From the sequence record NC_028847.1: a stretch of 64,000 bases of DNA, one strand, 5' to 3'. Under the pieces are notes generated by a model. The model saw nothing but the letters and a program-made list of their open reading frames with translations, had not been told where the DNA came from and made no database searches. Each line of letters opens with the position of its first letter. The first letter of the stretch is position 1. The position numbers and the translations under genes were made by a program. Positions 8,625 to 38,977 of the stretch are shown piece after piece. Source of the DNA: Escherichia phage QL01.

Positions 8625-8682
8625 AATGTTCTCCTCATGTGTTGATAGGATAGACTATAACACGTGAGGAGAGGAAGTAAAT
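8625..8682 (-). promoter_or_regulatory. early promoter cassette with SD-sequestering inverted repeat (CTCCTCACGTG / CACATGAGGAG)
   Basis: Minus strand: ATTTAC-17 nt-TATAGT, then IR arm containing GGAG SD 5 nt before ATG at 8624. Confidence 0.5.
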
Positions 8683-8683
8683 A

Positions 8684-9001
8684 CTAATCTTCAATTAAAT
8701 CTTGGTCATAACCAAGTTCAATCAAAAGCGATTTGAAGGCAGGAATATTTTCTATTTTCTTATTATCGACAAATATGACAGGATAGCGTATCGCTAAGCT
8801 CTTGAAGCCTGCACGTTTGGCCAATGATACTATAAGAGGCTTGTCGTATACTGCGCCTGACGGCGTCTGGTTAATCACAGGATAGAAAGTATGTGGGATA
8901 GAAAGGGAATTTAGGAGCGATAGAACAGCAATGCACCCTGGACAGCGCATGACTGTCTCAGGGATACCGTAAATCTCAATTTTAGTTAACTTTTGGTCCA
9001 C
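8684..9001 (-). CDS. glutaredoxin/NrdH-like thioredoxin-fold protein
   Basis: CPGC active-site motif near N-terminus, downstream cis-Pro-like YPVIFVD; 105 aa; location between 55 and 49 where T4 has nrdH. Confidence 0.5.
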   Translation of the reverse strand: MDQKLTKIEIYGIPETVMRCPGCIAVLSLLNSLSIPHTFYPVINQTPSGAVYDKPLIVSLAKRAGFKSLAIRYPVIFVDNKKIENIPAFKSLLIELGYDQDLIED

Positions 9002-9278
9002 AGGAAATAACTCCTTGGTAGTCCCAGGTTTTTAGAACTTCGTCCTCATTAGTTCCATACGGGACGTAAATCTGGATAAGGAACCCGGTGTCATCAAAAG
9101 AGAAGTAGACAGTCGGTTTAATACCATGAATCTCTGACAGAGCATAGATGTCCTTGAGGTCGTCTTCCTTACCTTTAAAGAATTCAGGGTTCAGGTCACA
9201 GTCATGGAAGTACCAATCATCACCAAACTTGTCCCAAGCGGTCCAATTCAAAGCTACATATTCTTCAAAACGTTTCAT
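8982..9278 (-). CDS. hypothetical protein
   Basis: 98-aa minus-strand ORF. Confidence 0.4.
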   Translation of the reverse strand: MKRFEEYVALNWTAWDKFGDDWYFHDCDLNPEFFKGKEDDLKDIYALSEIHGIKPTVYFSFDDTGFLIQIYVPYGTNEDEVLKTWDYQGVISCGPKVN

Positions 9279-9502
9279 TCTTTCACCTTCATCATTTTTG
9301 CAATAACACTATGAACAGCCTGGATTCGTTTGTCGAACTCGGACCCTTCAAGACCTTTTTCAGTACTCAGAGCACCAATAATCATGAACAGCAATCCAAA
9401 CGGAATAGCCAGGATTAAAAGGCATACGATAAACAGAACCAATGTTATATTAGCCAGGATATCAGAAACAGCATTACGAAATTTATTCATTAAAGAACCC
9501 AC
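9275..9502 (-). CDS. hypothetical small membrane protein
   Basis: 75 aa with one long hydrophobic segment (ITLVLFIVCLLILAIPFGLLFMIIGAL). Confidence 0.4.
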   Translation of the reverse strand: MGSLMNKFRNAVSDILANITLVLFIVCLLILAIPFGLLFMIIGALSTEKGLEGSEFDKRIQAVHSVIAKMMKVKE

Positions 9503-9611
9503 ATGTTAGTTACAACAAATAACCATTGAGCAGGATACTCAACACCCATAATACGCACCGCATCATTCAGAGATTCGGCTAAAGCATAAAATGTGTAGCC
9601 ATAAAAATTAA

Positions 9612-10085
9612 TCATTTAAGCGATTTCCTCAGTTGTTTTTTAAATGAATCGACCATTTGTTTCTTAGTGTCAGATTCATTATAAGTCATTCCATGTGAAA
9701 GCATTTCAGCAATCATTTCTTCCTTACCTAACCTGCTGAACTCTTTGGTTTTATCAGGAACGAAATTAGGATGGATATTGTTTTCAGTATAATCAGCTTT
9801 CAGATAGACCAGCAAATTCTCTAACCATTCGAGGTAGTCAACGTTTTGACCTTTAAGACCAGAACGGTTGAACTTATGCTTCATTTGTCCTTCTGCAGCA
9901 TTGCACAGATTACATAGTAAACCACGAACCTTACCGGCTTTTGGCCCGTTCAATTCATGGTCGTGGTCAAGGTGGTTACTTTGAACATCAGGGTTTAATT
10001 CACGTTTACAAATCAAACACTTACCACATTGTGCATCATAAAGTTTTTGTTTTTCTTCTTTGTATAATTTGCCGGTCAACAACAT
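9612..10085 (-). CDS. 49: endonuclease VII (Holliday junction resolvase) gp49
   Basis: 157 aa, same length as T4 endo VII; N-terminal MLLTGKLYKEEKQK and zinc-binding CxxC...HDHELNGPKAGKVRGLLCNLCN block. Confidence 0.92.
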   Translation of the reverse strand: MLLTGKLYKEEKQKLYDAQCGKCLICKRELNPDVQSNHLDHDHELNGPKAGKVRGLLCNLCNAAEGQMKHKFNRSGLKGQNVDYLEWLENLLVYLKADYTENNIHPNFVPDKTKEFSRLGKEEMIAEMLSHGMTYNESDTKKQMVDSFKKQLRKSLK

Positions 10086-10120
10086 AATAAACCCTTACCA
10101 TTATTAGATAAGGGTATTTA
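10086..10120 (-). promoter_or_regulatory. hairpin (ACCCTTA/TAAGGGT) immediately upstream of gene 49 start, preceded by TAATAAATA (late-promoter-like, one mismatch)
   Basis: Plus-strand aaacccttaccattattagataagggtatttatt; parallels known hairpin control of T4 gene 49. Confidence 0.3.
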
Positions 10121-10330
10121 TTATTTTTCAAATGTACTATAAAACGAGCGATGCAACCGTTTAAATTGACGAATCATCTTTTTAGTAGGACGGGTGTATA
10201 ACCCTACACAAGTGGCCATAAACTGATCAGTAGGACTTCCTTTAATAAGAAGTTTCCAGACTTTACCGCCATTTAACTTTTCAGTATAAATCAGTTCAGT
10301 TTTCATAGTAAAACCCATATTCCATATCAA
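10121..10330 (-). CDS. hypothetical protein
   Basis: 69-aa minus-strand ORF. Confidence 0.35.
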   Translation of the reverse strand: MIWNMGFTMKTELIYTEKLNGGKVWKLLIKGSPTDQFMATCVGLYTRPTKKMIRQFKRLHRSFYSTFEK

Positions 10331-10437
10331 TTAAATCATTGTTTGAAGGTTCATTATACTCTATTTCGGAATCGTTGTAAACGGGTTCCTCTGGCTCGGT
10401 AGGTTCTATCGTATCCCACCGAGCGACATACCATGGC

Positions 10438-10815
10438 TTAACGGTCACACCACCAACTACTTACTTCAAAATCAGGTTCACCGTGTTCCCAGTACCAAGG
10501 ACCGACTGGATGCCAATCACCGTGTTCATCTTCTTCAAATTCTTCAGATTCAAGGCCAACGTATTGCCATTGGACTTCATAAGCAGTGCCGCCGATTACA
10601 ACAGTGTTCTCGCCATATGGATGGGCTACAGCAAAGTCTATACCTTCTGCTTTAGCCAACCAAACCATATATTCGTATAGTTTATATTCCAGGTCATCTT
10701 CGGTACCATCACCTAGAAAAATGGTTTGTTCGTTTAATTCAATCATTTGAAGTTCCAGAATGAAGCACCAACCAGAAATAAAGGCCAACAAATCATAGAC
10801 GTCAACCACCAACAA
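10438..10815 (-). CDS. hypothetical acidic protein (start uncertain)
   Basis: 125-aa minus-strand ORF, Trp/Glu-rich. Confidence 0.35.
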   Translation of the reverse strand: MLVVDVYDLLAFISGWCFILELQMIELNEQTIFLGDGTEDDLEYKLYEYMVWLAKAEGIDFAVAHPYGENTVVIGGTAYEVQWQYVGLESEEFEEDEHGDWHPVGPWYWEHGEPDFEVSSWWCDR

Positions 10816-10900
10816 AAGTCACCTGAATCATCTAATTTAGCTAGGGTCTTAGCATAACCAATACCGATGATAAGATACAAAACAACCAACATTAATTCAA

Positions 10901-11164
10901 TCATTTGAAATACGCTCGCAGTTGGTCAAAGCCACCAATATGACTTCCATCAGGGGCAAATACTTGCGGCATGGTCAAACCGATTTGAGATTCGCGACCA
11001 AGCGCAGCCAGGAGTTGAGCAATCTTCTCATCATCAAATACGCCTTTTTCCGGCATCACGTTAATGAATTCGTAAGGTTGTTTCTTAACATCAAGCAGAC
11101 GTTTGGCATTATCACAGAAAACACAACGGTGAATATTTGAATCATAACCATAAACTTTAAACAT
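10901..11164 (-). CDS. nrdC: glutaredoxin NrdC
   Basis: 87 aa; MFKVYGYDSNIHRCVFCDNAKRLL with CVFC active site; near-colinear with T4 NrdC. Confidence 0.9.
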   Translation of the reverse strand: MFKVYGYDSNIHRCVFCDNAKRLLDVKKQPYEFINVMPEKGVFDDEKIAQLLAALGRESQIGLTMPQVFAPDGSHIGGFDQLRAYFK

Positions 11165-11165
11165 T

Positions 11166-11402
11166 TTAAATTCCTAATATTTGTTTGAATGCTTCAGAAC
11201 GGTCAAGTTCTGTTCCATATTTTTCCATGTGCTCATATTTTAAATTATACACATCAGATAGTATATTATTATACGAGCGAGTTAAAGCAGATTTCAATAC
11301 TGAATAACTGTCCGGAAATTTACCATGCTCTTTATAATAAGCTAAAGTAAGTTCGCGGACTGCCTTATCGGCAGCCTCTACATATTCTTTACGCTTTGCC
11401 AT
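11166..11402 (-). CDS. hypothetical protein (start at MAKRKEY)
   Basis: Internal start chosen to remove 128-nt overlap with upstream ORF. Confidence 0.35.
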
Positions 11403-11700
11403 TTTCTTCTCGCTCAAATTTATGTTTACAATGGCGGCATTTGTAACGAAGATTACTAGTCTGCCAATGGACCAATTGAACCTGTTCTGTGCCGCACTTA
11501 GGACAGTTAGGAACATTCTTAGAAGCTTGTTCTCGTCGTGCGACCATAGCCATTACAGCATCCCAATTAACGGCATCATCATAATCATCACAACCATGAA
11601 TTTTACCAACCAATTCAACTTCAACATCCGCGGCTTTAATAAATTTCAATAAACCAGTATTAGATGCTGAAGCAATATCTTCAGCTAAACGTTGTTTCAT
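11389..11700 (-). CDS. hypothetical protein with C-terminal zinc-ribbon-like CPKC...CRHC
   Basis: 103-aa ORF; paired CxxC motifs 20 residues apart. Confidence 0.4.
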
Positions 11701-12707
11701 TTCAGCAGCTCCAGAGCCTGTTCAAGACGGTCTAAACGATTGGTAGACTCTTCCCAAAGTTTCTTGGCAGCAGTATATTGGCCAGTCAGTTTTTTGTTGA
11801 TAGCAAGGGCGTCTTTATACGCTTTTTCCAAGGCAACGACTTCCGGTAACTTGGATTTAGTAATTGGTGTAGGGGCCATGATAGGGCTGTTCAAGTCGTT
11901 AATCAAATCTTCTAATGTAGCAGGCTCTTTATCAGTGTTCACAATTTCCTCACATTTTTCTTTGTAAATTTCAGCATCAGTTTTTGGAACGGTACATTTG
12001 ATTTCACGGACTGTTACTAAGACCTCATATCCTTTCCAGCCTAAGTGGTGTTTAACTTCTTGGGTCTCATATTTCTCTACGGTATCCATCAGAGCTAAAG
12101 CTTGTTCGATAGTATTCAAGGTATCGTAAGCAATATCTTGATACTTTACAACTTCCGCATCATCTTTAGGTTTCCTATTAGGTGACCAAATAACAGAAAT
12201 AATAGCTTTTCCTTTATAACTATTTGTTTTAATCATGCAATTAGCCATCGGGTGAATAGTACGACAATCACCGGAAACTATAGTTTTAGAGGCCGCTTTG
12301 AGAATTAATGCAGAGTTAGCCTTGAATTCGCTAACCCAACGTTGCGGAAATAAACTATTAGGGTCCATACCTTTAATTTTGATATAACCTTTTATGGTAT
12401 CACCAAACCATTTGTAGCTAACAACACGGTTGGAACCTGGATATTTCTCTTTACCGAACTCAGAAAGGATGTCCTTATTGACCAGGCGCGAAAGCAGTCG
12501 AGAACCTTTAAATGTTTTAATGATATCATGAATGCACAAACGGCCTGCAATCTTTTCGATTTCAGCTTTGAAACAGCGCGATAATGCATCATCAATTTGG
12601 TCGACCCATTTATTGATATTAGAAACTATTACCTCGTATGGGGTTAACGGAGGGGTGTTGGTAGTGATATACGTAGTAAAGGCATTGATGTATTCAGTAC
12701 GAGTCAT
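11697..12707 (-). CDS. hypothetical protein, C-terminal coiled coil
   Basis: 336-aa ORF with own upstream promoter cassette; C-terminal heptad-like K/E/L-rich segment. Confidence 0.5.
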   Translation of the reverse strand: MTRTEYINAFTTYITTNTPPLTPYEVIVSNINKWVDQIDDALSRCFKAEIEKIAGRLCIHDIIKTFKGSRLLSRLVNKDILSEFGKEKYPGSNRVVSYKWFGDTIKGYIKIKGMDPNSLFPQRWVSEFKANSALILKAASKTIVSGDCRTIHPMANCMIKTNSYKGKAIISVIWSPNRKPKDDAEVVKYQDIAYDTLNTIEQALALMDTVEKYETQEVKHHLGWKGYEVLVTVREIKCTVPKTDAEIYKEKCEEIVNTDKEPATLEDLINDLNSPIMAPTPITKSKLPEVVALEKAYKDALAINKKLTGQYTAAKKLWEESTNRLDRLEQALELLK

Positions 12708-12763
12708 GATATTCTCCTCAGTAGATTTAAAAGATTATACTCCATCCATCCTTGGATGTAAAC
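12708..12763 (-). promoter_or_regulatory. T4-type early promoter (GTTTAC -35, TATAAT -10)
   Basis: Plus-strand gtaaac at 12758-12763; minus strand GTTTAC-17 nt-(G)TATAAT then GAGGAG SD. Confidence 0.5.
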
Positions 12764-12764
12764 A

Positions 12765-13658
12765 TTATTTTAGAGCTAATACTGCCGCGCGGAGCTTGTC
12801 ACGCTGGAGTTCCATGTTCTTGATGCGAATCAATACGTCTTGAATACTCTTTTTCTCATCTTCGATCTGGCCGTTTAAACGGTGGATTGATTCCTGGAGG
12901 TGGTCCTCATGATACTTCTCGATAGGTTTCATCGTAGGGTTAGTAACCACCAAAGAATTCTCGGGTTTAATTTTCCAATGATACGGTTCAGAATTGAATG
13001 GACTCGGTACAGCCGTGGTTTTGAATCTGTCATAGGCTGCATACTGGCCTACGCTGTCACATGATACTGCAGAGATACGACGTTCCATTTGTGGTTCCTT
13101 TTGTTGGGATTGATAAGGGGCATAAGACAAAAGATATTCACGAGTTAGTTTAATATTAAAATAAACTGCATCAGCCCGCTCAAAACAATCAGCATATTCA
13201 TCGGTTGTAACTTTATATGATTCTACTGCCTTAATACGGGTCATTGCCTCTCTGAATAAGGTTTCGAATGCTTCACGAAGAGCCTTATTGCCTTTTGAGG
13301 TGGGACGGAAACGAACTTGAATACCGTCAGGCAGAATATTAATGACTAGGTTACGAGCCGTAAAATTAATATTCTTGATATTGACAGGAACCGTAGAAAT
13401 ACGTCCTGCGGTAGCCAAGAGGTCTTTGATATTAGCTCGCAGTGTTGCACCAAATAAATGAGCAGGGCAACGGCAATAATCGTTCAAAGAACTAATATAA
13501 GTCCCTTTACGACCTACACCATAAGTATAATTACCATTACAAATATGGCCAAAGTCTGCCAGCCGATCGATAGCGATACGACGAGTCGTGTCATGGTCAT
13601 AGATGGAATATTCTTTACGTGTTTTAATGTTCATATCAGAGTCCAAATAATTTTTCAT
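12765..13658 (-). CDS. hypothetical protein, C-terminal coiled coil
   Basis: 297-aa ORF; C-terminal 50 residues heptad-like. Confidence 0.45.
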   Translation of the reverse strand: MKNYLDSDMNIKTRKEYSIYDHDTTRRIAIDRLADFGHICNGNYTYGVGRKGTYISSLNDYCRCPAHLFGATLRANIKDLLATAGRISTVPVNIKNINFTARNLVINILPDGIQVRFRPTSKGNKALREAFETLFREAMTRIKAVESYKVTTDEYADCFERADAVYFNIKLTREYLLSYAPYQSQQKEPQMERRISAVSCDSVGQYAAYDRFKTTAVPSPFNSEPYHWKIKPENSLVVTNPTMKPIEKYHEDHLQESIHRLNGQIEDEKKSIQDVLIRIKNMELQRDKLRAAVLALK

Positions 13659-13851: not shown

Positions 13852-13853
13852 AA

Positions 13854-14760: not shown

Positions 14761-15284
14761 TATGCGAGAACCGTCTTTAAACGCTCTTCAAATTTCTGAA
14801 GCAGAGCTTGGCGTTCAGCTCGTTGTGATTTGTACTGCTCGATACGACCTGAAGTGAGGGCGTACTGTTCGTTTACTGATTCCCGCATGAATTCAGGAAT
14901 CTCTTTACAAGCTTTGATTTCGTCAAACTTATCAATAACAGCTTGTTGTTCAGCAATCAGATTATCGAAATAAGCGATATCAGATTTAACGTTTGCCAGG
15001 TCAGATTCGGTAGGCATTAAACGTTTGTTACGTTCAGCTTGATAAGCTTGATTGGTTTCACGACTCCAGTGAAGAGTACGTTTTTTGTTAGTGTTTTTAT
15101 AGAGCTCTACAATACCAACTGAATCGATGACAACAATCCAGTTCCAACGGCTTTTGTAAATCTCTCCTCCAGATACAGTAATCTCATTACCACAAGCAAC
15201 GTCGTTAAAGAACTTGCTTTGTTTTTCGGATTTGAAATTACCATTGTTATAATTGATGAGTGAAAAAATATCTTTAGCGTTCAT
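14760..15284 (-). CDS. hypothetical protein, C-terminal coiled coil
   Basis: 174-aa ORF downstream of a core-bearing promoter cassette. Confidence 0.45.
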   Translation of the reverse strand: MNAKDIFSLINYNNGNFKSEKQSKFFNDVACGNEITVSGGEIYKSRWNWIVVIDSVGIVELYKNTNKKRTLHWSRETNQAYQAERNKRLMPTESDLANVKSDIAYFDNLIAEQQAVIDKFDEIKACKEIPEFMRESVNEQYALTSGRIEQYKSQRAERQALLQKFEERLKTVLA

Positions 15285-15339
15285 GTTAACCTCCAGTAGT
15301 TGATAGGTCTATAGTATCATTTCTACTGGAGATGTAAAC
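15285..15339 (-). promoter_or_regulatory. PeSL-like early promoter cassette (core ttgataggtctatagtatca; IR CTCCAGTAG/CTACTGGAG sequestering SD)
   Basis: Core at 15300-15319; gtaaac at 15334-15339; arms at 15291-15299 and 15323-15331. Confidence 0.6.
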
Positions 15340-15341
15340 AA

Positions 15342-15683
15342 CTAATAGAAACTTTTTTCACCGGCTTGACCACTAAACCATGCGGATTGAGTGTTCTCTT
15401 TCCGTTGGTGTTCAATACGAATGCGATATTCATTCCTGATGGCGCAGAGTTCATCTCGGAAGTCGCCTGCCAACTTTACCTGCTTGCGGTCTAGATTTAT
15501 TAAGGCCTGGGTGTTAACGGCCAAGCGCAGTCTCCTGAAGTCTCCTCCACTACACGGATTTTTATAGAATTTCTCAGAAAACTTAGTACTACATTCATTA
15601 GTATAGTCTTCAACAGACTGTTTCATAGCTTTGGAAAAAGTCTGACCTGCGTTATAAAGATTGTAAATAAATTGTTCAAACAT
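15342..15683 (-). CDS. hypothetical protein
   Basis: 113-aa minus-strand ORF. Confidence 0.4.
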   Translation of the reverse strand: MFEQFIYNLYNAGQTFSKAMKQSVEDYTNECSTKFSEKFYKNPCSGGDFRRLRLAVNTQALINLDRKQVKLAGDFRDELCAIRNEYRIRIEHQRKENTQSAWFSGQAGEKSFY

Positions 15684-15692: not shown

Positions 15693-16673
15693 TTATTTCA
15701 GAAGTGTAACTTCAGCGATTTCGCTCCAGTCATTTTTATCGGTGGCAATGAAGTCCGCCAGATAAAGAGCTGTACGTAATGATACGTTACGAAGACGAGA
15801 TACATTAGCCTTCATCCATGCTAAAGCTTGGTAAGTCTCGGCATCAGTCAGACCACGGTTTTGCATCATATCAGTGGACAGGATAACGTCTTCAACACGA
15901 ACCATAATCTCTTCGTTCGAGTGAACTCCGAGGTCTAAGTAAACTGAACGCGATACTAAAGCCTGGAGGTGTGGAGCAAGTTTAGTTCCACGCTCTAATT
16001 CACGGTCAATATCAACGTTGGTGATGAACACGATGGTGCCTTCATACTCAAATTCTTTATCGATATTTTTATCATCAAGATAAGAACTTGAAGTGCTCCA
16101 GCACACCTTACGTTTTTCACCAGTATCCAATGCTGCTTTTAACAGGTTCAGGATATCCATATCAGAGAATACATCAACATCATCAATAAGAAGAACACTA
16201 TTAGGGCCGCGGTTATTCCAAAGCTGCTCGTAAAGACCGATTCCACTAATCTTTCCGTTGATTGATTTATATTCGATAGTTTCATTTTCGTGGGCATTCT
16301 GTAATGCTTTATCCAAAGAATATGTTTTACCAATACCTGCGGCACCAGAGATGATAAGGGAACGAATTTTACCATCGATGATTCCATTAGTCATCATGTT
16401 CATTACTTTAAAACGTTTGTTAATGCGATGTTTCATTTCTTCAGCGGATTCAGTAACAACTGCAGGAGCTTCAGCACCTTCCATTTCAACGTCACATTTG
16501 AACACCCATACACCACGTTCAACACCATCAATCTGTACAAATACCTTACCATCACCGAGGTGAGCTTCGGATTCATGAATTTTATTAGGGAACCAGGTTT
16601 TACCTGAACTCATGAACGTACCGGAGATTACATTACCGCGATAGATACCTTTGTTGATTTTGATAGTTAACAT
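15693..16673 (-). CDS. P-loop NTPase (Walker A GAAGIGKT, Walker B LLIDDVD), function unknown
   Basis: Start set at MLTIKINKG (internal Met of ORF 15693..16817) preceded by GGAGAA SD and promoter cassette. Confidence 0.55.
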   Translation of the reverse strand: MLTIKINKGIYRGNVISGTFMSSGKTWFPNKIHESEAHLGDGKVFVQIDGVERGVWVFKCDVEMEGAEAPAVVTESAEEMKHRINKRFKVMNMMTNGIIDGKIRSLIISGAAGIGKTYSLDKALQNAHENETIEYKSINGKISGIGLYEQLWNNRGPNSVLLIDDVDVFSDMDILNLLKAALDTGEKRKVCWSTSSSYLDDKNIDKEFEYEGTIVFITNVDIDRELERGTKLAPHLQALVSRSVYLDLGVHSNEEIMVRVEDVILSTDMMQNRGLTDAETYQALAWMKANVSRLRNVSLRTALYLADFIATDKNDWSEIAEVTLLK

Positions 16674-16739
16674 TATATTCTCCATTTCACTCAGTAGATT
16701 TGATAGGTCCATAATAACATGCTCTACGAAGGTGTAAAC
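16674..16739 (-). promoter_or_regulatory. PeSL-like early promoter cassette (core variant ttgataggtccataataaca)
   Basis: gtaaac 16734-16739; minus strand GTTTAC-17 nt-TATTAT; SD GGAGAA. Confidence 0.5.
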
Positions 16740-16754
16740 TCTTTTTTGCACTAA

Positions 16755-16780
16755 ACCCAAAAAAGGAACCCGAAGGTTCC
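16755..16780 (-). terminator. intrinsic terminator, GGAACC-UUCG-GGUUCC hairpin plus U-run
   Basis: Plus-strand aaaaaaggaacccgaaggttcc; perfect 6-bp stem, tetraloop, 6 U on minus transcript. Confidence 0.6.
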
Positions 16781-16968
16781 TAAATTGCGCTCCAAAAATT
16801 ATGGAAGCGTATATCATTTATAGCCCAGTTAACAAATTGTCTTGTCTGTTTAGGCGTAGGTTTGCACACGTACTTGATATTGACTCGACGTCCGGTTTCT
16901 TTACAGACAGCTTCAAGATACCAACGTCGGGTTTTATGGGGTCTTCCATATGATAAAAAGACCTTCAT
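16780..16968 (-). CDS. small basic protein (start MKVFLSYGRPHK; ORF track extends to 17022)
   Basis: 62 aa, K/R-rich; begins 7 nt after the stop of the upstream nucleotidyltransferase-like gene. Confidence 0.4.
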   Translation of the reverse strand: MKVFLSYGRPHKTRRWYLEAVCKETGRRVNIKYVCKPTPKQTRQFVNWAINDIRFHNFWSAI

Positions 16969-19830: not shown

Positions 19831-19857
19831 GAAAAAAGGTCCCACCGAAGTGAGACC
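19831..19857 (-). terminator. intrinsic terminator, GGUCUCAC-UUCG-GUGGGACC hairpin plus U6
   Basis: Plus-strand aaaaaaggtcccaccgaagtgagacc, directly after stop of gene 19863..20246. Confidence 0.6.
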
Positions 19858-19862
19858 TTTGA

Positions 19863-23213: not shown

Positions 23214-23672
23214 TTAAAGATAGATTACTTTCGTGCTGGTTTTACCTTCTAAACGTTTAGAGTTAACAAATGCCATACGACATTTAAGGGAATATCCTTT
23301 ATCAGGATGTTTACGGTCTACTGTCATACCTAGCCATAAGGTTTTATCGGTAATTTCGAGACGCAATGGACGATACACTTTACCAGGGACAATTTCGGAT
23401 TCTACATCAGGTAGAGGTTCCTGGATTAAAAATTCATGAATTTCTTTAACATGGTTATGGAGTTGCTTGAATAAAGCAAAAACGTATTTTTCGTCGATTT
23501 CACGTTGGATAGCACGGTCCAACAAGTGATTAGAGTACTTAATAAAGAAGGCTGGGACTCCGCTCTTGATGGCGGCTTTTTTGATGGACGTATTCAGTTC
23601 ACGGAATTCGGTTTCGAACTGACGACGTAATTTATTGCGGCGGATGAATACTTCTGAATTAATTTCTGACAT
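23214..23672 (-). CDS. regB: RegB endoribonuclease
   Basis: 152 aa; FIRRNKLRR...HLLDRAIQREIDE...RLEITD...LWLG resembles T4 RegB; location between tk and denV as in T4. Confidence 0.75.
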   Translation of the reverse strand: MSEINSEVFIRRNKLRRQFETEFRELNTSIKKAAIKSGVPAFFIKYSNHLLDRAIQREIDEKYVFALFKQLHNHVKEIHEFLIQEPLPDVESEIVPGKVYRPLRLEITDKTLWLGMTVDRKHPDKGYSLKCRMAFVNSKRLEGKTSTKVIYL

Positions 23673-23729
23673 TTTGTAATCTCCTGTAGTTGATAGGTCT
23701 ATAGTACCACGTCTACAGGAGATGTAAAC
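23673..23729 (-). promoter_or_regulatory. PeSL-like early promoter cassette upstream of regB (IR CTCCTGTAG/CTACAGGAG)
   Basis: Core variant 23690-23709; gtaaac 23724-23729; arms 23681-23689 and 23713-23721. Confidence 0.6.
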
Positions 23730-25709: not shown

Positions 25710-25752
25710 TGTTATTCCTTAAGTTGATAGAAGTATTCTATCACGGATTTAA
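25710..25752 (-). promoter_or_regulatory. perfect 8-bp inverted repeat TGATAGAA-gta-TTCTATCA between denV and internal-protein gene
   Basis: Plus-strand ttgatagaagtattctatca; resembles the promoter-cassette core; followed on minus strand by AAGGAA SD. Confidence 0.35.
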
Positions 25753-26169
25753 TTAAGCGTAAATAGCCTTGCCATAATGTTTGTACCAGGTAGGACGCTG
25801 TGCAATTTTTTCATCCAAACGGGTCTGAGATATAGCAATAGAAGCTTCGTGTGGAGTATAGTCACCACGGAATTCCTGAGGAATGTCACTAATGTCCTGG
25901 ACAGTAGTATCCTTGATATTAAAACCACGTTTTAAACATTCGGCTATAAGCTCAATTTGTCGCTTACGTAAAAATTCAAGCTTATCGTAAAAGAATGTAA
26001 CATGGCCTGTGCCAAGGATAAAAGTAGGACTGATTTTGAAATCACGGACACGTTTACCATTAGCAACATGCTTACGAACTGCACCGAAAACACGTGGTAA
26101 TTCACGATATTCAGCCATTAAGTGTTGGTCAGCCAATTCAGATACTAAGGTAAGGTTGATACGAGTCAT
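25753..26169 (-). CDS. denV: endonuclease V (pyrimidine-dimer DNA glycosylase) DenV
   Basis: 138 aa; [34 protein letters not shown], colinear with T4 endo V. Confidence 0.92.
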
Positions 26170-26225
26170 TTTTAATCTCCTGTAGTTGATAGGTCTATAG
26201 TATCATGACTACAGGAGATGTAAAC
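26170..26225 (-). promoter_or_regulatory. PeSL-like early promoter cassette upstream of denV (IR CTCCTGTAG/CTACAGGAG sequestering SD)
   Basis: Core 26186-26205; gtaaac 26220-26225; arms 26177-26185 and 26209-26217. Confidence 0.6.
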
Positions 26226-26249
26226 AACTTTTATCAAGTATAGGCTTTA

Positions 26250-26846
26250 TTAATTACCACGGGCTGCATTAGCAACGGCGTAAGCGTACTGAATATTAGC
26301 GTCTTTAAACGTACCTTTAGAGGTATCTATCTCTGCCTTAAAGCCGCCTTTAACCATAACATCAGCAAATTCTTTACGGAAAGTCATTGCATCAAGACCT
26401 TTCCATGCGGATTTATGCTTGGCAAATTCAAGACCGGCGAAGTTAACTGCTTTAGCCAATTTATTATCAATAGTCCATTTACCTGCTTTAGGTACAAACA
26501 CCGGGCCTTTCTGTTTAGAGAACAGTTTTAAATTCCAGCGACGAAGGTCACCGTCAGCTTTAACAAAAGCTGCGTCCAAGTTACTAGCAACAACATCTTG
26601 GATATGGGCAAATTTAAGTCCATCAGCTTCAATATTTAGGTCGTTACGCCAGCGAAGTCCTTCCCAGGCGAAAGCTTTAAAATCAGAAGCTTTTGTAGCC
26701 AAGTACCGTTCAATAGGAGCTGTTTTAGCGTCAAAACCGTTTCCTGGGTTGTCAACGCCGTTTCCTTTGTAAGTCCACTCATCTTTATTAATGCCTTGGA
26801 CCTTTCCTACAGAAGCTTCGGCGATAAATTCTTTATACGTTTTCAT
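26250..26846 (-). CDS. internal protein with capsid-targeting sequence (ipIII-like size)
   Basis: Begins MKTYKEFIAEAS; 198 aa, Lys/Ala-rich. Confidence 0.7.
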   Translation of the reverse strand: MKTYKEFIAEASVGKVQGINKDEWTYKGNGVDNPGNGFDAKTAPIERYLATKASDFKAFAWEGLRWRNDLNIEADGLKFAHIQDVVASNLDAAFVKADGDLRRWNLKLFSKQKGPVFVPKAGKWTIDNKLAKAVNFAGLEFAKHKSAWKGLDAMTFRKEFADVMVKGGFKAEIDTSKGTFKDANIQYAYAVANAARGN

Positions 26847-30020: not shown

Positions 30021-30086
30021 TTTATTCTCCATTTCACTCTGTTGTTTTGATAGGTCTATAGTATCACACCTATAGACCTTGTACAC
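30021..30086 (-). promoter_or_regulatory. PeSL-like early promoter cassette (core; IR AGGTCTATAG/CTATAGACCT flanking -10)
   Basis: Core 30046-30065; -35 variant GTGTAC (plus gtacac 30081-30086). Confidence 0.55.
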
Positions 30087-33788: not shown

Positions 33789-33804
33789 AATATTCTCCTC
33801 TCCT

Positions 33805-33829: not shown

Positions 33830-33836
33830 GGTAACA

Positions 33837-34430: not shown

Positions 34431-34503
34431 AGTATTTCCTTCAGTTGGTTAACGTTTTGTAATCCATGAGGACATTATACCCTGTCCTCTGAGGTTTGTA
34501 AAC
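34431..34503 (-). promoter_or_regulatory. T4-type early promoter (GTTTAC-17 nt-TATAAT) with IR GAGGACA/TGTCCTC flanking -10
   Basis: gtaaac 34498-34503; arms 34468-34474 and 34483-34489. Confidence 0.5.
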
Positions 34504-34506
34504 ATT

Positions 34507-34905
34507 TTATTTCATTTTTGCGAGGCAGATTTCATTGGCTTCCCATTGAGCTTGCTTAATAATAGCTTTGGATACAGGAACCCTTTGGCCATAAGTTTTT
34601 GATGTTGAGAGAACAATATGTTTGTTTGCTTCATTATGCCAGCCCCATGATTTTTCGCCATGAGTACCTTTAACTACAGCTGACACCTCAACAGAGCAAC
34701 CACCATCAGAAATCTTGGTTTCGACAACCCATTCATTTCTCTCGACAGCTTCAATTTCCAATCTAGTTTTTTCTTCATACATCGCGGCCCAATCAGTTTT
34801 TGCCAAGTTGAAAGCAAGAGCTTTCTCTAATTCTTTGGCATATTTTTGTTGTTCGGGTGTTAATGAATTATACAACTCTTGCATTTCTTTATCTTCGATA
34901 TTCAT
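34507..34905 (-). CDS. hypothetical protein
   Basis: 132-aa ORF. Confidence 0.45.
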   Translation of the reverse strand: MNIEDKEMQELYNSLTPEQQKYAKELEKALAFNLAKTDWAAMYEEKTRLEIEAVERNEWVVETKISDGGCSVEVSAVVKGTHGEKSWGWHNEANKHIVLSTSKTYGQRVPVSKAIIKQAQWEANEICLAKMK

Positions 34906-34961
34906 TATGTTCTCCTCAAATTATGGGGCTCATAATATCTTAATAATGAGCCCATGTAAAC
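34906..34961 (-). promoter_or_regulatory. T4-type early promoter (GTTTAC, TATTAT) with IR flanking -10
   Basis: gtaaac 34956-34961; near-palindrome atggggctcat / atgagcccat. Confidence 0.45.
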
Positions 34962-34964
34962 GTT

Positions 34965-35228
34965 TTATTTCATATTATTGAAATAATTTTCTGCATCAAA
35001 ATCACTACCATGGTAAACTTTGGTAGACGATTTGGCGTAACCTTCAGCTGAGAACATATTAATCACAACTTTAATTGTATACCACTGTCCATCTTCATTA
35101 CCCATTACTGCATAGGTTTCATACACCGGGTGTTCAGGACCGATAACCTTAATATCGTTAACTGTGGCACCAAATTCTTCCGGAACACATTTCATAAAGA
35201 AATTAAACACTTCACCATAATTATCCAT
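34965..35228 (-). CDS. hypothetical protein (start MDNYGEV)
   Basis: ATG start with AAGGAG SD; ORF-track start is a GTG 5 codons upstream. Confidence 0.4.
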   Translation of the reverse strand: MDNYGEVFNFFMKCVPEEFGATVNDIKVIGPEHPVYETYAVMGNEDGQWYTIKVVINMFSAEGYAKSSTKVYHGSDFDAENYFNNMK

Positions 35229-35292
35229 TTTACTCTCCTTCACTCTGTTGTTTTGATAGGTCTATAGTATCATGTTCTACGAAAGAGTAAAC
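35229..35292 (-). promoter_or_regulatory. PeSL-like early promoter cassette (core ttgataggtctatagtatca)
   Basis: Core 35253-35272; gtaaac 35287-35292. Confidence 0.6.
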
Positions 35293-35315
35293 ATCTTTTT
35301 TAAACCTTTTAGAAA

Positions 35316-35345
35316 CAAAAAAGGCCCAACCTTTCGGAAGGGCCT
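35316..35345 (-). terminator. intrinsic terminator (GGCCC...GNRA-loop...GGGCC plus U6)
   Basis: Plus-strand aaaaaaggcccaacctttcggaagggcct after gene end 35350. Confidence 0.55.
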
Positions 35346-35349
35346 AGAA

Positions 35350-35904
35350 TCAGTTCTTGTAGAACCGGAATGGGTTTATGTGGAAGGCTAACATAGCCTT
35401 AGGGATTTTACGAGACAAAAGGCTCTTAAGCTTCCAACCACAGTACACGCGAAGGTAAAAGGTAATCCCACCAACCTTAAGATATGGAACTGAAGCAAAT
35501 ACACCCCAGGCGTCGTCATTCCACATCCATAACCACCCGTGATGAGCTTTATCAGGAGAACCGGATTCCACGTCGGGATTACCTCGATAATGGAATTCCG
35601 AGCTACAATCACGACCGAGTTTATGGTAAGCAAAGTTATAAGCTTTATTTCGCCATAGCCAAGCTACTCTCTGAAGATAAACACCACCCGGCATTTTCCT
35701 GATGTTAGCCCAACGTTTAATATGACCTTTATCACCGTCAATTGGATTATCGTATGTCATCATCCAATCAAAGCCGTACGGTAATTTACCTGTCTTTTTA
35801 TTGTGGAAAGGAACCACAAATGGTGCAAGGATAACAGCCAGAACCATAGAGATAAAATCCAGTGGAACCAACAGAACCCAACTCAAATATTTTAAAAGTT
35901 TCAT
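35350..35904 (-). CDS. hypothetical membrane protein (N-terminal TM; start MKLLKYL)
   Basis: Internal Met directly after upstream terminator; ORF track extends to 36009 through the hairpin. Confidence 0.4.
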   Translation of the reverse strand: MKLLKYLSWVLLVPLDFISMVLAVILAPFVVPFHNKKTGKLPYGFDWMMTYDNPIDGDKGHIKRWANIRKMPGGVYLQRVAWLWRNKAYNFAYHKLGRDCSSEFHYRGNPDVESGSPDKAHHGWLWMWNDDAWGVFASVPYLKVGGITFYLRVYCGWKLKSLLSRKIPKAMLAFHINPFRFYKN

Positions 35905-35917
35905 ATATTTCTCTAAG

Positions 35918-35945
35918 TTAACCAAAAAGCCCCAGACGGGGCTTT
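35918..35945 (-). terminator. intrinsic terminator (AAAGCCCC-GUCU-GGGGCUUU plus U-tract)
   Basis: Perfect 8-bp stem directly after internal-protein gene stop at 35948. Confidence 0.55.
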
Positions 35946-35947
35946 CG

Positions 35948-36412
35948 TTATTTGATTTGTTTAGCAGACCAGATACGGTCTTTGATGATTTTCTGAATAT
36001 CTTCAACATACTCTAAGTCGTGAGCATGTGGATTATCTTTGAAGCTATGTGCTCGTGCCAGTTTCTGGCCTTCTGTTTTGATTACTAAAAGCTCTTTAAG
36101 AATTGCTTCATACTTAGAAATAATTCCTTTGGCGATATTTTTTTCTTGAGCGGCTTTAGGGTCCGCTTTTGACGCAGGTGCTTTACCTGTAGCTTTCTGG
36201 AACAATTCACCTGAGGCAGCTAGGCTTTTAAAAACTCGGCTAACAGTATTGGCATTAGTAAAACCTTCGGCTTTAAAATCTTTAATAAAACGGAAACGTT
36301 CTTCATCAGAGGCGTCTTTGTAAGAATATTTACCTGCTTGAATTGCTGCAATCGCAGCGGCTTTTACATCTGAACTAGATTGTTCAGTCAAAAATTCATT
36401 GTAAGTTTTCAT
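35948..36412 (-). CDS. internal protein with capsid-targeting sequence
   Basis: Begins MKTYNEFLTEQS; 154 aa, Lys/Ala-rich. Confidence 0.65.
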   Translation of the reverse strand: MKTYNEFLTEQSSSDVKAAAIAAIQAGKYSYKDASDEERFRFIKDFKAEGFTNANTVSRVFKSLAASGELFQKATGKAPASKADPKAAQEKNIAKGIISKYEAILKELLVIKTEGQKLARAHSFKDNPHAHDLEYVEDIQKIIKDRIWSAKQIK

Positions 36413-36438
36413 ATTATTTCCTAAGTTAGTTTACTACA

Positions 36439-36446
36439 TATTTATA
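36439..36446 (-). promoter_or_regulatory. late promoter TATAAATA upstream of internal-protein gene
   Basis: Plus-strand tatttata 36439-36446, ~27 nt upstream of ATG 36412. Confidence 0.5.
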
Positions 36447-36447
36447 C

Positions 36448-36478
36448 AAAAAAAGCCCAACCTTTCGGAAGGGCCTTT
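36448..36478 (-). terminator. intrinsic terminator closing the tRNA/ncRNA transcription unit
   Basis: Plus-strand aaaaaaagcccaacctttcggaagggcct; near-duplicate of hairpin at 35316-35345; U7 on minus transcript. Confidence 0.55.
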
Positions 36479-36857
36479 AACCTAGGGTAACCTTGTCGGG
36501 GTTCCACCTGCTAGGCAAGTGTTTGTACGAAACGCCGGGATTCGAACCCGGTTATTAAGTAGTTGACGCCACTCAATATTTTTAAAAGGCCATATCTCGA
36601 CCATATCCGAACGTTCCGTCAAAAACGCTACTCGGCTTACGGCAAAGATATTTCCTCGAATCGATAATTCGGTGCGCCGTTTCTGCTGTGATGTAAGGGG
36701 ACGTTAACAGATCGTAAAGATTTGTTAATGCCAGTCCTTACTCAGGGAACATCAGTCCGACGACTTACCGGTAGCGACCCGGTTTCTTGTTTGTTGCGCC
36801 GGTGAATGCTGGTAATCAGTCTTCATACGACGGCTTGACTATATAATAGTCTTCATT
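36479..36857 (-). ncRNA. structured non-coding region downstream of tRNA-Arg; contains tRNA-like T-arm CCGGG-TTCGAAT-CCCGG (36535-36551); possible counterpart of T4 small stable RNAs
   Basis: No ORF on minus strand; multiple stem-loops (e.g. GACTAT-TAT-ATAGTC); T-arm consensus without a complete cloverleaf. Confidence 0.35.
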
Positions 36858-36932
36858 TGGTATCCCGCCCTGGGATCGAACCAGGACCGCAAACTTAGAA
36901 GGATCGTATGCTATCCATTACACCAGCGGGAC
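36858..36932 (-). tRNA. tRNA-Arg (anticodon TCT), CCA encoded
   Basis: Minus strand GTCCCGC...anticodon loop CTTCTAA...T-arm CCTGG-TTCGATC-CCAGG...GCGGGAT-A-CCA; 7-bp acceptor stem with one G-U. Confidence 0.8.
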
Positions 36933-36937
36933 GTAGT

Positions 36938-37014
36938 TGGTGACCCAGACCAGATTTGAACTGGTAACCTTTCCCTTATGAGGGGACTGCTGCTAACCAT
37001 TGAGCTACAGGGCC
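36938..37014 (-). tRNA. tRNA with CAT anticodon (Met or lysidine-type Ile), CCA encoded
   Basis: Minus strand GGCCCTG TAGCTCAATGG...anticodon loop CTCATAA...T-arm ACCAG-TTCAAAT-CTGGT...CTGGGTC-A-CCA; one U-U mismatch in acceptor stem. Confidence 0.7.
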
Positions 37015-37019
37015 TTAAA

Positions 37020-37292
37020 TCAAACTACAAATCCAGCAGGAGCATTATCATCTTTAGCCATGTGCTGAATTGTATGATAAGTCATTTCTTCAGGAGCAAC
37101 CAGATAAGCCGCAGCGTTAACTAGTGGAATTATTTTTGGTTTGGCGAATGTGCTATCGGCAATTGCCATAAAGGGCTCGCCATCAGTCTCAACTTCGCCA
37201 AATTGACATTCATATGAAATAGAACAACGTTTGGTAGTTGTTGTCTTGGTTTCTGGGTCGTAAAAAGCTAATTTTAATACTAACATAAACAC
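37020..37292 (-). CDS. hypothetical protein
   Basis: 90-aa ORF ending 5 nt before the tRNA cluster. Confidence 0.4.
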   Translation of the reverse strand: MFMLVLKLAFYDPETKTTTTKRCSISYECQFGEVETDGEPFMAIADSTFAKPKIIPLVNAAAYLVAPEEMTYHTIQHMAKDDNAPAGFVV

Positions 37293-37460
37293 CTCAAATA
37301 AAATTAAGTAAAGTAAGTTTGATTAATAGACCTTGTCTATTATGAAAGGTTCTTTGAGGGAAGAACCTTTGGTAATAGAGGGTATTAATGATAGAGTAAT
37401 AATAACACATTACTCTTAAAGCATATTACTATTTTTAGGAATAGTCTGGTCAAATTTGAT
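37293..37460 (-). promoter_or_regulatory. 168-nt non-coding spacer with three inverted repeats (10-bp AAAGGTTCTT/AAGAACCTTT; 8-bp AGAGTAAT/ATTACTCT; TAGAC/GTCTA)
   Basis: No ORF; perfect IRs at ~37355-37380 and ~37395-37420. Confidence 0.3.
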
Positions 37461-37751
37461 TCATTGTGGCCACATATTAATGTAATCAAGTTTAATAGAA
37501 GCAATCTTCAAAGGATTTTTAAAGATGTCGTATTCGACCAACCCGTTTTCAGTTGCGGTGTAGAAAGTAAAGTTAACAGAATTATAACGGCGACCATTAA
37601 CTTTTAGTTTAACGTCGCTTGAACTACGACCAATATTAACCTGTTGGACATCAAGCACAGCACCTTTGCCAAAGTTGCGAATCAGTAGCTCTGCTGCAAC
37701 CTGGTCTGAATTATAGCCATTCTCTGGATTAGTAACCTTAACGTATAGCAT
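37461..37751 (-). CDS. hypothetical protein
   Basis: 96-aa ORF. Confidence 0.4.
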   Translation of the reverse strand: MLYVKVTNPENGYNSDQVAAELLIRNFGKGAVLDVQQVNIGRSSSDVKLKVNGRRYNSVNFTFYTATENGLVEYDIFKNPLKIASIKLDYINMWPQ

Positions 37752-38159
37752 TTAACCCTCGTCTACAATAGTATGGGTATTAGCATTAACAATCTGCCAC
37801 CAGTCACAGTCAAAACGATTAGAACCGTAACGAGGCTTTTTCTCATTTTCGTTAATAATATCACGTAGTTCGTCTTCAGAAAATGCTTTAGCGATTAAAT
37901 CGGTATAGCCGCCACGTGGATAATAGTTATCACCTGCGAACAGAAGGAAATTTACTTTACCAGAAGGAACATATGCTTCCTTAGGATACTTGTTTCCTGC
38001 TTGGTCTACCACTTCAATATAACGGTAAGGAATATCGGTACTTTCAACCCATTGCCAAGCTGCAGCAGGGGATTCAAAAGCATCTACACCTAAACGGTTA
38101 TCTTCATCTTTAGACGGATTATTTTCATAATCCGCATATACATAATATTCAATGTTCAT
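37752..38159 (-). CDS. hypothetical protein
   Basis: 135-aa ORF, abuts upstream ORF. Confidence 0.4.
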   Translation of the reverse strand: MNIEYYVYADYENNPSKDEDNRLGVDAFESPAAAWQWVESTDIPYRYIEVVDQAGNKYPKEAYVPSGKVNFLLFAGDNYYPRGGYTDLIAKAFSEDELRDIINENEKKPRYGSNRFDCDWWQIVNANTHTIVDEG

Positions 38160-38356
38160 TATTCACCTTTAGAGATTTTATCCATAACGAAAGAAATTGA
38201 ACCAATTAAGAATGCCACTACTAAAGAGATTATATTCTCGGAAGTTGAAAGCATATCGAGCATGAATCCTGCAAACATACTAAAGCCAAAAGCAGTAACA
38301 GCGGCCAGTGCAGTAACATTTCTAATTAATTCACAACGTTTCATTTTATTCTCCAA
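38159..38356 (-). CDS. hypothetical small membrane protein
   Basis: 65 aa with two hydrophobic segments; preceded by promoter cassette. Confidence 0.4.
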   Translation of the reverse strand: MENKMKRCELIRNVTALAAVTAFGFSMFAGFMLDMLSTSENIISLVVAFLIGSISFVMDKISKGE

Positions 38357-38410
38357 TCACTCATTTGTTTTGATAGGGCTATAGTACCATCACTAAAGCC
38401 CGTTGTAAAC
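38357..38410 (-). promoter_or_regulatory. PeSL-like early promoter cassette (core variant ttgatagggctatagtacca with compensating partner arm)
   Basis: Core 38370-38389; gtaaac 38405-38410. Confidence 0.55.
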
Positions 38411-38412
38411 AA

Positions 38413-38685
38413 TTATTTTAAATAAATTGCATATTTTTTATAACCAGCCGTCTCGTGGCGCAGCCCTTTTTCATTAGCAAAACGTTCAATATTGTTAATT
38501 TGATTCTGGTCGAGTTCTGAAGTATCAAATACAAAAAAGTTTCGCTTATTGCCTAAAGTTACGTGATTAGTCAAATCGATGTTATAGAGATGATTTATAT
38601 TATCAATCATGGTCTTAACAGATTTGTTAATTTTTACTTCTTCATTAAGAATAGATTCAGCGATAAATTCTTGGTATGATTTCAT
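38413..38685 (-). CDS. internal protein with capsid-targeting sequence
   Basis: Begins MKSYQEFIAESI; 90 aa. Confidence 0.6.
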   Translation of the reverse strand: MKSYQEFIAESILNEEVKINKSVKTMIDNINHLYNIDLTNHVTLGNKRNFFVFDTSELDQNQINNIERFANEKGLRHETAGYKKYAIYLK

Positions 38686-38686
38686 T

Positions 38687-38911
38687 TTATTCAGCGCCAG
38701 CGGCTTTCAAAAGTTTTTTAAGATTGGCTATGCCGCCAGCAGAAAACGTGACCTTGCCACCTTTTTCATTGATAGAGCCAGTCAATTTAGCAAGCTTATC
38801 ACTAGGGACTTTTTTAAAATCAGCCAGTGTGCCATCAAAGGTTTTTGTAACAATTGGCAGTTCATCTTCATGTCTTTTAGCTTCGGTGATAAATTCTTGA
38901 TAAGTTTTCAT
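38687..38911 (-). CDS. internal protein with capsid-targeting sequence
   Basis: Begins MKTYQEFITEAK; 74 aa. Confidence 0.6.
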   Translation of the reverse strand: MKTYQEFITEAKRHEDELPIVTKTFDGTLADFKKVPSDKLAKLTGSINEKGGKVTFSAGGIANLKKLLKAAGAE

Positions 38912-38977
38912 TTTGATTTCCGTTTGGTTAGTTTGTTTTGATAGGTCTATAGTATCATGCCTATAGACCTTGTAAAC
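38912..38977 (-). promoter_or_regulatory. PeSL-like early promoter cassette (core; IR AGGTCTATAG/CTATAGACCT)
   Basis: Core 38938-38957; gtaaac 38972-38977. Confidence 0.6.

Follow-up and report, generated by a model that had tools for sequence, protein, structure and literature searches.

In this work, we analyzed a series of early-promoter cassettes, and the inverted repeats embedded in them, in a stretch of 64,000 nucleotides (nt) of DNA from Escherichia phage QL01 (sequence record NC_028847.1; hereafter, the window). Compared in pieces of 4 kb and 25 kb, the window matches JS98-like coliphages (Dhakavirus, Straboviridae, relatives of T4), with identities to these pieces of 98.9% for phage LQ5 and 92-95% for MX01, MN04 and IME281. 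Judged by the annotated MN04 and T4 loci, positions 7-40 kb are the early region that runs from nrdC to tk, vs, regB, the ip genes, e and the tRNA genes, on the minus strand. At 18 sites on this strand we found the same layout: GTTTAC (-35), a spacer of 17 or 18 nt, TA...T (-10, often with TG before it, in the forms TG-n-TACTAT or TATAAT), a short leader, a Shine-Dalgarno (SD) sequence and ATG. A 17-nt core, TACTATAGACCTATCAA, occurs nine times where 0.23 occurrences are expected. Four of the 18 cassettes carry a helix between the spacer and the SD, six carry a helix flanking the -10, in which the spacer is paired with the 3' end of the -10 and the discriminator and the SD is not reached, and eight have no convincing hairpin. 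Every inverted repeat listed by a first-pass annotation of this DNA was found in the sequence where it had been placed. We favor, with moderate confidence, the reading that the SD-type helix ties translation to the local early promoter, and that the -10-flanking hairpins belong to the published early-promoter stem-loop elements known as PeSLs and act in another way on read-through RNA. The hairpin-bearing cassettes, with the regB and denV genes, are the following.

26167-26225, minus strand: denV cassette, with the -35 at 26225-26220, the 5' arm (anti-SD, in the spacer) at 26219-26208, the -10 at 26202-26197, the 3' arm over the GGAG SD at 26187-26176 and the ATG at 26169.
23670-23729, minus strand: regB cassette, with the -35 at 23729-23724, the 5' arm at 23723-23713, the -10 at 23706-23701, the 3' arm with the SD at 23689-23679 and the ATG at 23672.
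15282-15339, minus strand: cassette of a 174-amino-acid (aa) open reading frame (ORF; phrog_2274), with the 5' arm at 15333-15323 (core CTCCAGTAG), the 3' arm with the SD at 15299-15289 and the ATG at 15284.
8622-8682, minus strand: cassette of a 60-aa ORF (phrog_2283), with the -35 ATTTAC at 8682-8677, the 5' arm at 8672-8659, the -10 TATAGT, the 3' arm with the SD GAGGAG at 8643-8630 and the ATG at 8624.
38943-38977, minus strand: -10-flanking cassette, AGGTCTATAG at 38970-38961 and CTATAGACCT at 38952-38943, z -5.4, SD outside the helix.
30052-30086, minus strand: -10-flanking cassette, AGGTCTATAG at 30079-30070 and CTATAGACCT at 30061-30052, z -3.4.
38376-38410, minus strand: variant -10-flanking cassette, GGGCTTTAG at 38401-38393 and CTATAGCCC at 38384-38376, 8 of 9 pairs, z -1.85.
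34923-34961, minus strand: -10-flanking cassette, ATGGGCTCAT at 34955-34946 and ATGAGCCCCAT at 34933-34923 with one bulge, z -2.2; absent from the list of the first-pass annotation.
34468-34503, minus strand: -10-flanking cassette of an e.6-like 197-aa ORF, GAGGACA at 34489-34483 and TGTCCTC at 34474-34468.
7521-7555, minus strand: -10-flanking cassette, GGACCA at 7540-7535 and TGGTCC at 7526-7521, z -1.4.
23214-23672, minus strand: regB, encoding the endoribonuclease RegB (Pfam PF10715, E 6.1e-69; phrog_1323), which had been said to lie in the window and does; it stands directly downstream of one of the SD-masking cassettes.
25753-26169, minus strand: denV, encoding endonuclease V, a pyrimidine-dimer glycosylase (PF03013, E 1.3e-14; phrog_1183).

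The consequence of the SD-type repeats for RNA structure was assessed by folding the read-through segments and the same leaders begun at the predicted +1, which was placed by the usual 7-nt spacing from the -10, with z-scores taken from 200 shuffles. For the four SD-type read-through segments, folding energies range from -18.3 to -21.1 kcal/mol and z from -3.1 to -5.8 (0 to 2 of 200 shuffles were equally stable), and the pairing probability of the SD is 1.0 in the read-through folds of cassettes 26225, 23729, 15339 and 8682, whereas the corresponding own-promoter leaders are predicted to fold at only -0.6 to -2.3 kcal/mol, with z about 0 and the SD open. Read-through and local transcripts reach, respectively, -20.7 (z -4.84) and -1.6 kcal/mol (z -0.08) for denV, -18.3 (z -3.13) and -1.4 kcal/mol for regB, -19.5 (z -5.33) and -0.6 kcal/mol for the 174-aa ORF, and -21.1 (z -5.83) and -2.3 kcal/mol for the 60-aa ORF, whose helix has 10 of 11 pairs with one C.A mismatch and is a perfect 11-bp helix in the MN04 orthologue. 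The proposal that in these four cases the 5' arm precedes the start site and the 3' arm is the SD, which would be hidden in read-through RNA and free in the local RNA, agrees with these predictions. In 28 of 29 strong cases of the wider collection described below, the 3' end of the 5' arm lies no more than 8 nt beyond the -10 and hence at or upstream of the predicted start. An arm that overlaps the -10 extends 7-9 nt past it, to about the start site deduced from the -10 spacing; the others stop 6-16 nt short of the end of the -10. The T4 RefSeq record contains no promoter or start-site features. The four masked cassettes have no intrinsic terminator upstream, and the genes upstream of them are co-oriented and abut the -35.

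Whether pairing is maintained was addressed with cassettes collected by an exact-core scan of IMG/VR (75 unique cassettes), from other T4-type contigs (the sequence 5' of regB, denV, the 174-aa gene and the e.6-like gene), and from T4. In a set of 57 cassettes, de-duplicated so that no arm resembled another, the mean pairing energy of the promoter part was -9.25 kcal/mol with the cassette's own SD leader versus -6.74 kcal/mol with the leaders of other cassettes (permutation p = 5e-5); pairs at -16 kcal/mol or better made up 7/57 (12%) of the own combinations versus 0.6% of the others, and the own leader ranked as the best partner in 7/57 cassettes, where one was expected. For the -10-flanking helix, the own and other means were -5.36 and -3.60 kcal/mol (p = 5e-5). 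An ungapped alignment of 65 rows of the core family gave a covariation of 0.249 for the columns of the spacer/SD helix (7-17 x 41-51), versus 0.166 +/- 0.015 in shuffled alignments (none of 500 reached the observed value) and 0.12-0.18 for slid partners. The -10-flanking helix showed no covariation in this core-family alignment because its 3' arm is the invariant core itself, and support for this class comes solely from cassettes whose cores differ. Three arm types, CTCCTGTAG/CTACAGGAG, CTCCAGTAG/CTACTGGAG and CTCCATTAG/CTAATGGAG, are set apart by double changes in two neighbouring pairs. Inside the window there are two true compensatory double changes, T-A to A-T in cassette 15339, relative to the denV and regB arms, and GGTC/GACC to GGGC/GCCC in cassette 38410, relative to the AGGTC/GACCT type.

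Grouping the orthologues by downstream gene, we found that the arms hardly vary where they are paired: (i) in the four masked gene contexts 2/72 arm columns were variable versus 18/88 neighbouring non-promoter columns (p = 6e-4), and (ii) in unmasked contexts 30/90 of the columns at the arm positions were variable (p = 3e-7 relative to the same 2/72). Between lineages the structure is kept with arms of other sequence. The SD of denV is masked in all of some 15 T4-type lineages, by about 15 different arm pairs of unrelated sequences such as TTCCTCCAAG/CTTGGAGGAA, TCTCCGTTTG/CAAACGGAGA, TTCTCCTGTAGATG/CATCTACAGGAGAA, ATGTCCTCCTA/TAGGAGGACAT and TAGTGTTCTC/GAGAACACTA, with the 5' arm in the spacer in some lineages and over the -10 and discriminator in others; T4 denV has the same cassette as that of the window. 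The SD of regB is masked in 4 of 5 lineages with different arms (TTTCTCCTCTTTAT/ATAAAGAGGAGAAA in one of them), among them one perfect 14-bp helix, and in T4 by TTTTCCTCTTGACTG/CAGTTAAGAGGAGAA, a 15-bp helix that includes a single G.U pair (-23.1 kcal/mol, z -4.1). The same is seen in the other class, as the e.6-like gene keeps its -10-flanking hairpin with four to five different arm pairs (GGGAACA/TGTTCCC and GTGTAGGAGA/TCTCCTACAC among the orthologues, ATTAGA/TCTAAT in T4), and the T4 e.7 orthologue of the 34961 hairpin, AGGCTCAT/ATGAGCCT, differs by a G-C to A-T double change. Among the 101 annotated genes of MN04, the three strongest pairings between upstream sequence and SD all lie at promoter cassettes (hypergeometric p = 0.0017), and the fourth is a classical hairpin with the late promoter TATAAATA in its loop; a rank test of promoter-bearing versus promoter-less genes was marginal (p = 0.06) because masking is limited to a subset of cassettes.

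Taken together, these results indicate that the pairing is maintained by selection and not by chance. The suggestion that sequence drifts while pairing is kept is borne out by the own-versus-other leader tests, the orthologues and the arm columns, although chimeric and uncompensated copies exist; the covariation expected of aligned copies exceeds the shuffled and slid controls for the spacer/SD helix and is absent, within the core family, for the -10-flanking helix. The same data bear on the idea of an operator, in which a dimeric repressor of the phage would recognize the palindromes around the -10 and turn the early promoters off. The mechanism of this shut-off is reported as not understood (PMC3014915, PMC2988021) and the repeats do straddle the -10. 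However, arm spacing varies, and the arm sequences are wholly different among cassettes and lineages while complementarity is kept, so that the signature is one of nucleic-acid pairing and not of a common protein-binding site; we therefore rejected a protein operator as extremely improbable.

The relation of the hairpins to intrinsic terminators was the most telling pointer to an action on read-through RNA. Terminators near the cassettes mostly consist of a stem with a UUCG loop followed by a T run, as in these two examples from the window.

19835-19860, minus strand: intrinsic terminator with an 11-bp stem, UUCG loop and T run, directly upstream of cassette 19822, which is without a strong hairpin.
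16764-16781, minus strand: intrinsic terminator with a UUCG loop and T run, directly upstream of cassette 16739, which is without a hairpin.

Across 155 unique cassettes (loci L002-L185), scored for a terminator within 70 nt upstream, a promoter-embedded hairpin was present in 1 of the 24 with a terminator versus 69 of the 131 without one (p = 3e-6); counted per gene context, the figures were 2/13 and 29/53 (p = 0.014). In view of this near mutual exclusion, terminators and hairpins look like alternative answers to incoming transcription. It might then be asked whether all the stem-loops have a purely transcriptional role as PeSLs, attenuating or terminating upstream transcription, with the overlap of 3' arm and SD being incidental. 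Mutual exclusion is what elements with one job would show, and the PeSL211/210 stem-loop, placed between promoter and lacZ, cut expression about as much as the rrnB T1 terminator (PMC2839356), although such a lacZ assay would equally register a translational block. Besides, in a terminator pattern scan at the hairpins none qualified: no stem is followed by a U run, the tails being ATCAAAAC... or GGAGAUUAAAA, and thus the hairpins are not canonical intrinsic terminators. Across lineages, moreover, non-cognate pairing would predict far fewer 3' arms on the SD than are seen. We regard this explanation as quite unlikely.

In the mechanism that we propose, the inverted repeats would be RNA-level elements of sigma-70-type early-promoter cassettes and would act solely on transcripts arriving from upstream. 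The 5' arm, which occupies the -35/-10 spacer or, as some relatives have it, the -10 with the discriminator, would precede the start of the cassette's transcript, and the transcript of the own promoter would for that reason lack it. At the four SD-type cassettes, those of denV, regB, the 174-aa ORF and the 60-aa ORF, a read-through mRNA would close a helix of 9-14 bp once the SD has been transcribed, blocking free binding of the 30S subunit, while in the short promoter-proximal mRNA the SD would be open. The gene would then be translated essentially while its own early promoter fires, which would yield an immediate-early pulse insulated from upstream and later transcription. The anatomy of the cassettes, the contrast in predicted folding, the covariation and conservation of the arms and the avoidance of terminators are results of the analysis; where transcription starts, that read-through occurs and that translation is affected are what we infer in this scheme. 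The -10-flanking hairpins would exist solely in read-through RNA, and their most likely role is to attenuate this read-through or insulate against it, not to regulate translation.

Several observations weigh against our reading. SD masking was found in just 4 of the 18 cassettes of the window, the -10-flanking class needs another function, and the cassettes at 35292, 31374, 26928, 25764, 19822, 16739, 12763 and 7978 have no convincing hairpin. The evidence for compensation within the window is thin, consisting of one shared arm set, two double changes and one arm pair of unrelated sequence; the denV and regB copies are not independent because their arms are identical, and the orthologue set is enriched for these same two genes. 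Since the leaders of masked cassettes are short, the position of the arm relative to +1 is a weak discriminator. Part of the covariation is linkage of co-inherited arms because whole cassettes move as units, and mismatched copies occur: in JS98 (L057/L171), the orthologue of window 15282-15339 is a chimera in which the spacer arm CTCCATTAG, identical to the one in the cassette of a different gene, is combined with the leader arm CTACTGGAG and leaves one mismatch, and other copies combine CTCCTGTAG spacers with a CTTGGAG leader or an AGGTC spacer with a GCCC core. Finally, the upstream stop codon usually abuts the -35 and, in most spacer-type cases, precedes the 5' arm by 5-12 nt, so that a terminating ribosome might reopen the SD.

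This last point opens the way to translational coupling, in which the helix would bar free ribosome entry while a ribosome ending at the upstream stop would melt the base of the helix, so that the downstream gene is translated in step. Most cassettes indeed have the stop codon of the upstream gene at a distance of -1 to +6 nt from their -35 (in the window, for instance, at 15342-15344 and 8684-8686, TAGTTTAC), and the 5' arm begins 5-12 nt past the stop in 19/26 masked cassettes. This distance is within reach of the footprint of a terminating ribosome. However, the denV cassette of the window has its stop 31 nt from the arm, and the denV lineages with the 5' arm over the -10 have a gap of 25-29 nt and still keep the masking, which argues that coupling is not the common denominator; coupling also gives no reason why the 5' arm should always be placed ahead of the local start. 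We consider coupling unlikely.

The mismatched copies, in turn, raise the question of whether the repeats are a by-product at the DNA level, arising from hairpin-templated (quasi-palindrome) mutation or serving recombination between cassettes, and have no function in RNA. Templated mutation in quasi-palindromes is known from T4. The cassettes do recombine, as seen in the chimeric copies and in a denV indel that ends in two cassettes, and shuffling mediated by PeSLs is documented in two reports (PMC2839356, PMC4122927). The JS98 chimera is apparently a gene conversion with a crossover in the conserved core; uncompensated relatives of the 38410 variant hairpin occur in other genomes, the core family as a whole is a mosaic of spacer modules and leader modules, and chimeric and uncompensated copies alike look like products of recombination within the conserved core. 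Recombination between cassettes, however, requires direct and not inverted repeats, and a neutral process would not so consistently put the 3' arm on the SD or the start site, hold the arms invariant just where they are paired, or shun the cassettes that bear terminators. In MN04, furthermore, similar inverted repeats are not equally frequent in non-promoter intergenic DNA. A mere by-product therefore appears most improbable.

A further explanation concerns RNA decay, as the helix might hide GGAG from RegB or block exonucleases and thus tune mRNA turnover. RegB cleaves early SDs at GGAG, an activity that secondary structure inhibits (PMC3014915, PMC1702504), it cuts its own SD (PMC3014915), and regB itself bears such a cassette both here and in T4. 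On the other hand, a masked SD would be untranslatable anyway and would gain little from protection, masking is also found on SDs other than GGAG (AAGGA, GAGGAA), and the resistance of the T4 denV SD to RegB has been explained by its 3' context, a change of which could reverse it (PMC1702504). A shield against RNases as the reason for the helices is in our view very unlikely. The more limited suggestion that the hairpins could modulate RegB sensitivity is plausible, because inhibition of RegB by structure is on record.

Turning to known systems, the sequestration of an SD by a hairpin that contains the promoter has been demonstrated by experiment for the T4 genes e, soc, 49 and I-TevI, and I-TevII/III, segB and mobE of phage Aeh1 are further members (PMC3014915, PMC2988022); all such genes are late according to a review (PMC2988022). 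There, as predicted here, a helix holds the SD and/or the AUG, the promoter lies in the hairpin, and the gene's own transcript, without the 5' arm, is translatable while the long ones are silent. The helix includes the SD in our four SD-type cassettes and not in the six -10-flanking hairpins. In contrast to the known members, which are late genes with a gp55-type promoter TATAAATA (Edgell et al.), the four SD-type cassettes have early promoters of the sigma-70 type with the anti-SD between -35 and -10. The effect predicted for them is the reverse, a restriction to immediate-early instead of late times. The analogy with T4 genes e and 49 that had been drawn from the sequence is apt, and the window holds two classical late-type cases of its own. 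At 43037-43086 (minus strand), the arrangement AGTGCCTCC-gag-TATAAATA-atattaatatttataa-GGAGGCACT-ATG hides the SD in a helix of 9 bp whose loop carries a T4-type late promoter, a classical late-gene design, upstream of an ORF starting MAYSGKF that adjoins the gp53 gene in MN04. At 10091-10115 (minus strand), the homologue of gene 49 (endonuclease VII) has a hairpin, ACCCTTATC...GGTAAGGGT, that immediately precedes its ATG and matches the known regulatory hairpin of T4 gene 49. A concept identical to the one proposed here has been described for bacterial sigma-54 promoters, where CT-rich insulator motifs from a synthetic oligonucleotide library act as a promoter-encoded anti-SD that pairs with the downstream SD on read-through RNA, silences its translation and insulates the gene (Levy et al., bioRxiv 10.1101/086108); whereas those are motifs of 3-5 nt in bacteria, the helices of the phage sigma-70 promoters covary and measure 9-14 bp. 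We found no description of SD masking at early promoters in the literature searched, which did not extend to older T4 papers in subscription journals, so that a prior description is possible. The results partly support the view that SD masking extends to early genes, T4's own regB and denV among them, a mechanism previously known for late genes of T4.

The six -10-flanking cassettes match the PeSL class. PeSLs have been described, in the passages of Arbiol et al. 2010 and Comeau et al. 2014 considered here, for RB49/phi1, T4/PST and KVP40/nt-1, and were read there, in the proposal for RB49 and phi1, as terminators or attenuators and as recombination sites. Compared by their published description, they are likewise intergenic cassettes of a strong early promoter, stem-loop, SD and ATG upstream of small ORFs in plastic regions. 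The promoter part is represented in the window by the predicted GTTTAC-N17/18-TA...T promoters of the 18 minus-strand sites, which have a TG before the -10 and lead into an SD and ATG; the stem-loop lies between -35 and -10 or over the -10, and indels and chimeras are mediated by the cassettes, as illustrated by the denV deletion of MN04, the JS98 chimera and the mosaic spacer and leader modules. Five stem-loop positions are described for PeSLs (ahead of the -35, on the -35 itself, between the two hexamers, on the -10, and just before the start site), none of which reaches the SD, whereas the four SD-type helices span from spacer to SD and occupy none of the five. The words "translation" and "compensatory" are absent from Arbiol et al. 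2010 and likewise from the passages considered of Comeau et al. 2014, and in these parts of the PeSL papers JS98 is mentioned in passing and the Dhakaviruses are otherwise unanalysed. The translational explanation had been offered for the -10-flanking repeats as well; as these do not touch the SD and match published PeSL stem-loops, that explanation leaves them out. Its scope of many early genes comes down to 4 of the window's 18 cassettes and, for the wider set, to some 12-20%.

Some further features of these genomes may be described here. MN04 lacks denV between ipIII and a 99-aa ORF (window 25710-26250 versus L001:30401-30462), and the deletion ends inside the two flanking promoter cassettes, as PeSL-type modular shuffling predicts. 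Upstream of the denV homologues in jumbo-phage contigs of 345-380 kb (L111-L113, L117) there is a different, composite design: a GC-rich terminator-like hairpin, GGGTTGAC...GTCAGCCC, with a T run, whose 5' arm includes the TTGAC -35 of the next promoter. The ORF at 15693-16817 (minus strand) was called by program with its start at 16817; the cassette, its SD and the terminator at 16764-16781 point instead to the ATG at 16673 as the real start, and the resulting 326-aa product has weak matches to AAA-type NTPases. An Rfam scan returned two tRNAs only and no family that covers the hairpins. The following tRNA genes lie in the window, and MN04 has an extra tRNA-Asn between them.

36858-36932, minus strand: tRNA-Arg(tct).
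36938-37014, minus strand: tRNA-Met(cat).

Altogether, it is tempting to speculate, although somewhat tentatively, that T-even phages possess a general system of this kind. The own promoter, carrying an anti-SD in its spacer, would license translation for a subset of early genes, including those of RegB and DenV in T4; embedded hairpins and terminators would be interchangeable insulators; and modular recombination would shuffle the cassettes while selection rematches the arms. Together with promoter shut-off, such a system might explain part of the arrest of early synthesis that is credited to RegB and to unknown factors.

If our reading of the SD-type helices is true, a cis-acting, protein-independent layer would be added to the early-to-middle switch of T4-type phages: some early proteins would be made from the transcript of their own promoter alone, and their synthesis would end with that promoter, whatever reads through later. 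As regB and denV carry the element in T4, this is directly testable there. Part of the PeSL stem-loops, formerly read as terminators, would have to be reinterpreted, and lacZ assays with such stem-loops may have measured a translational block. For engineering and annotation, the rule would follow that a moved cassette or an inserted gene needs matching spacer and SD arms, or else its read-through expression changes. The near-exclusion of terminators and promoter-embedded hairpins is in itself a new regularity of these genomes.

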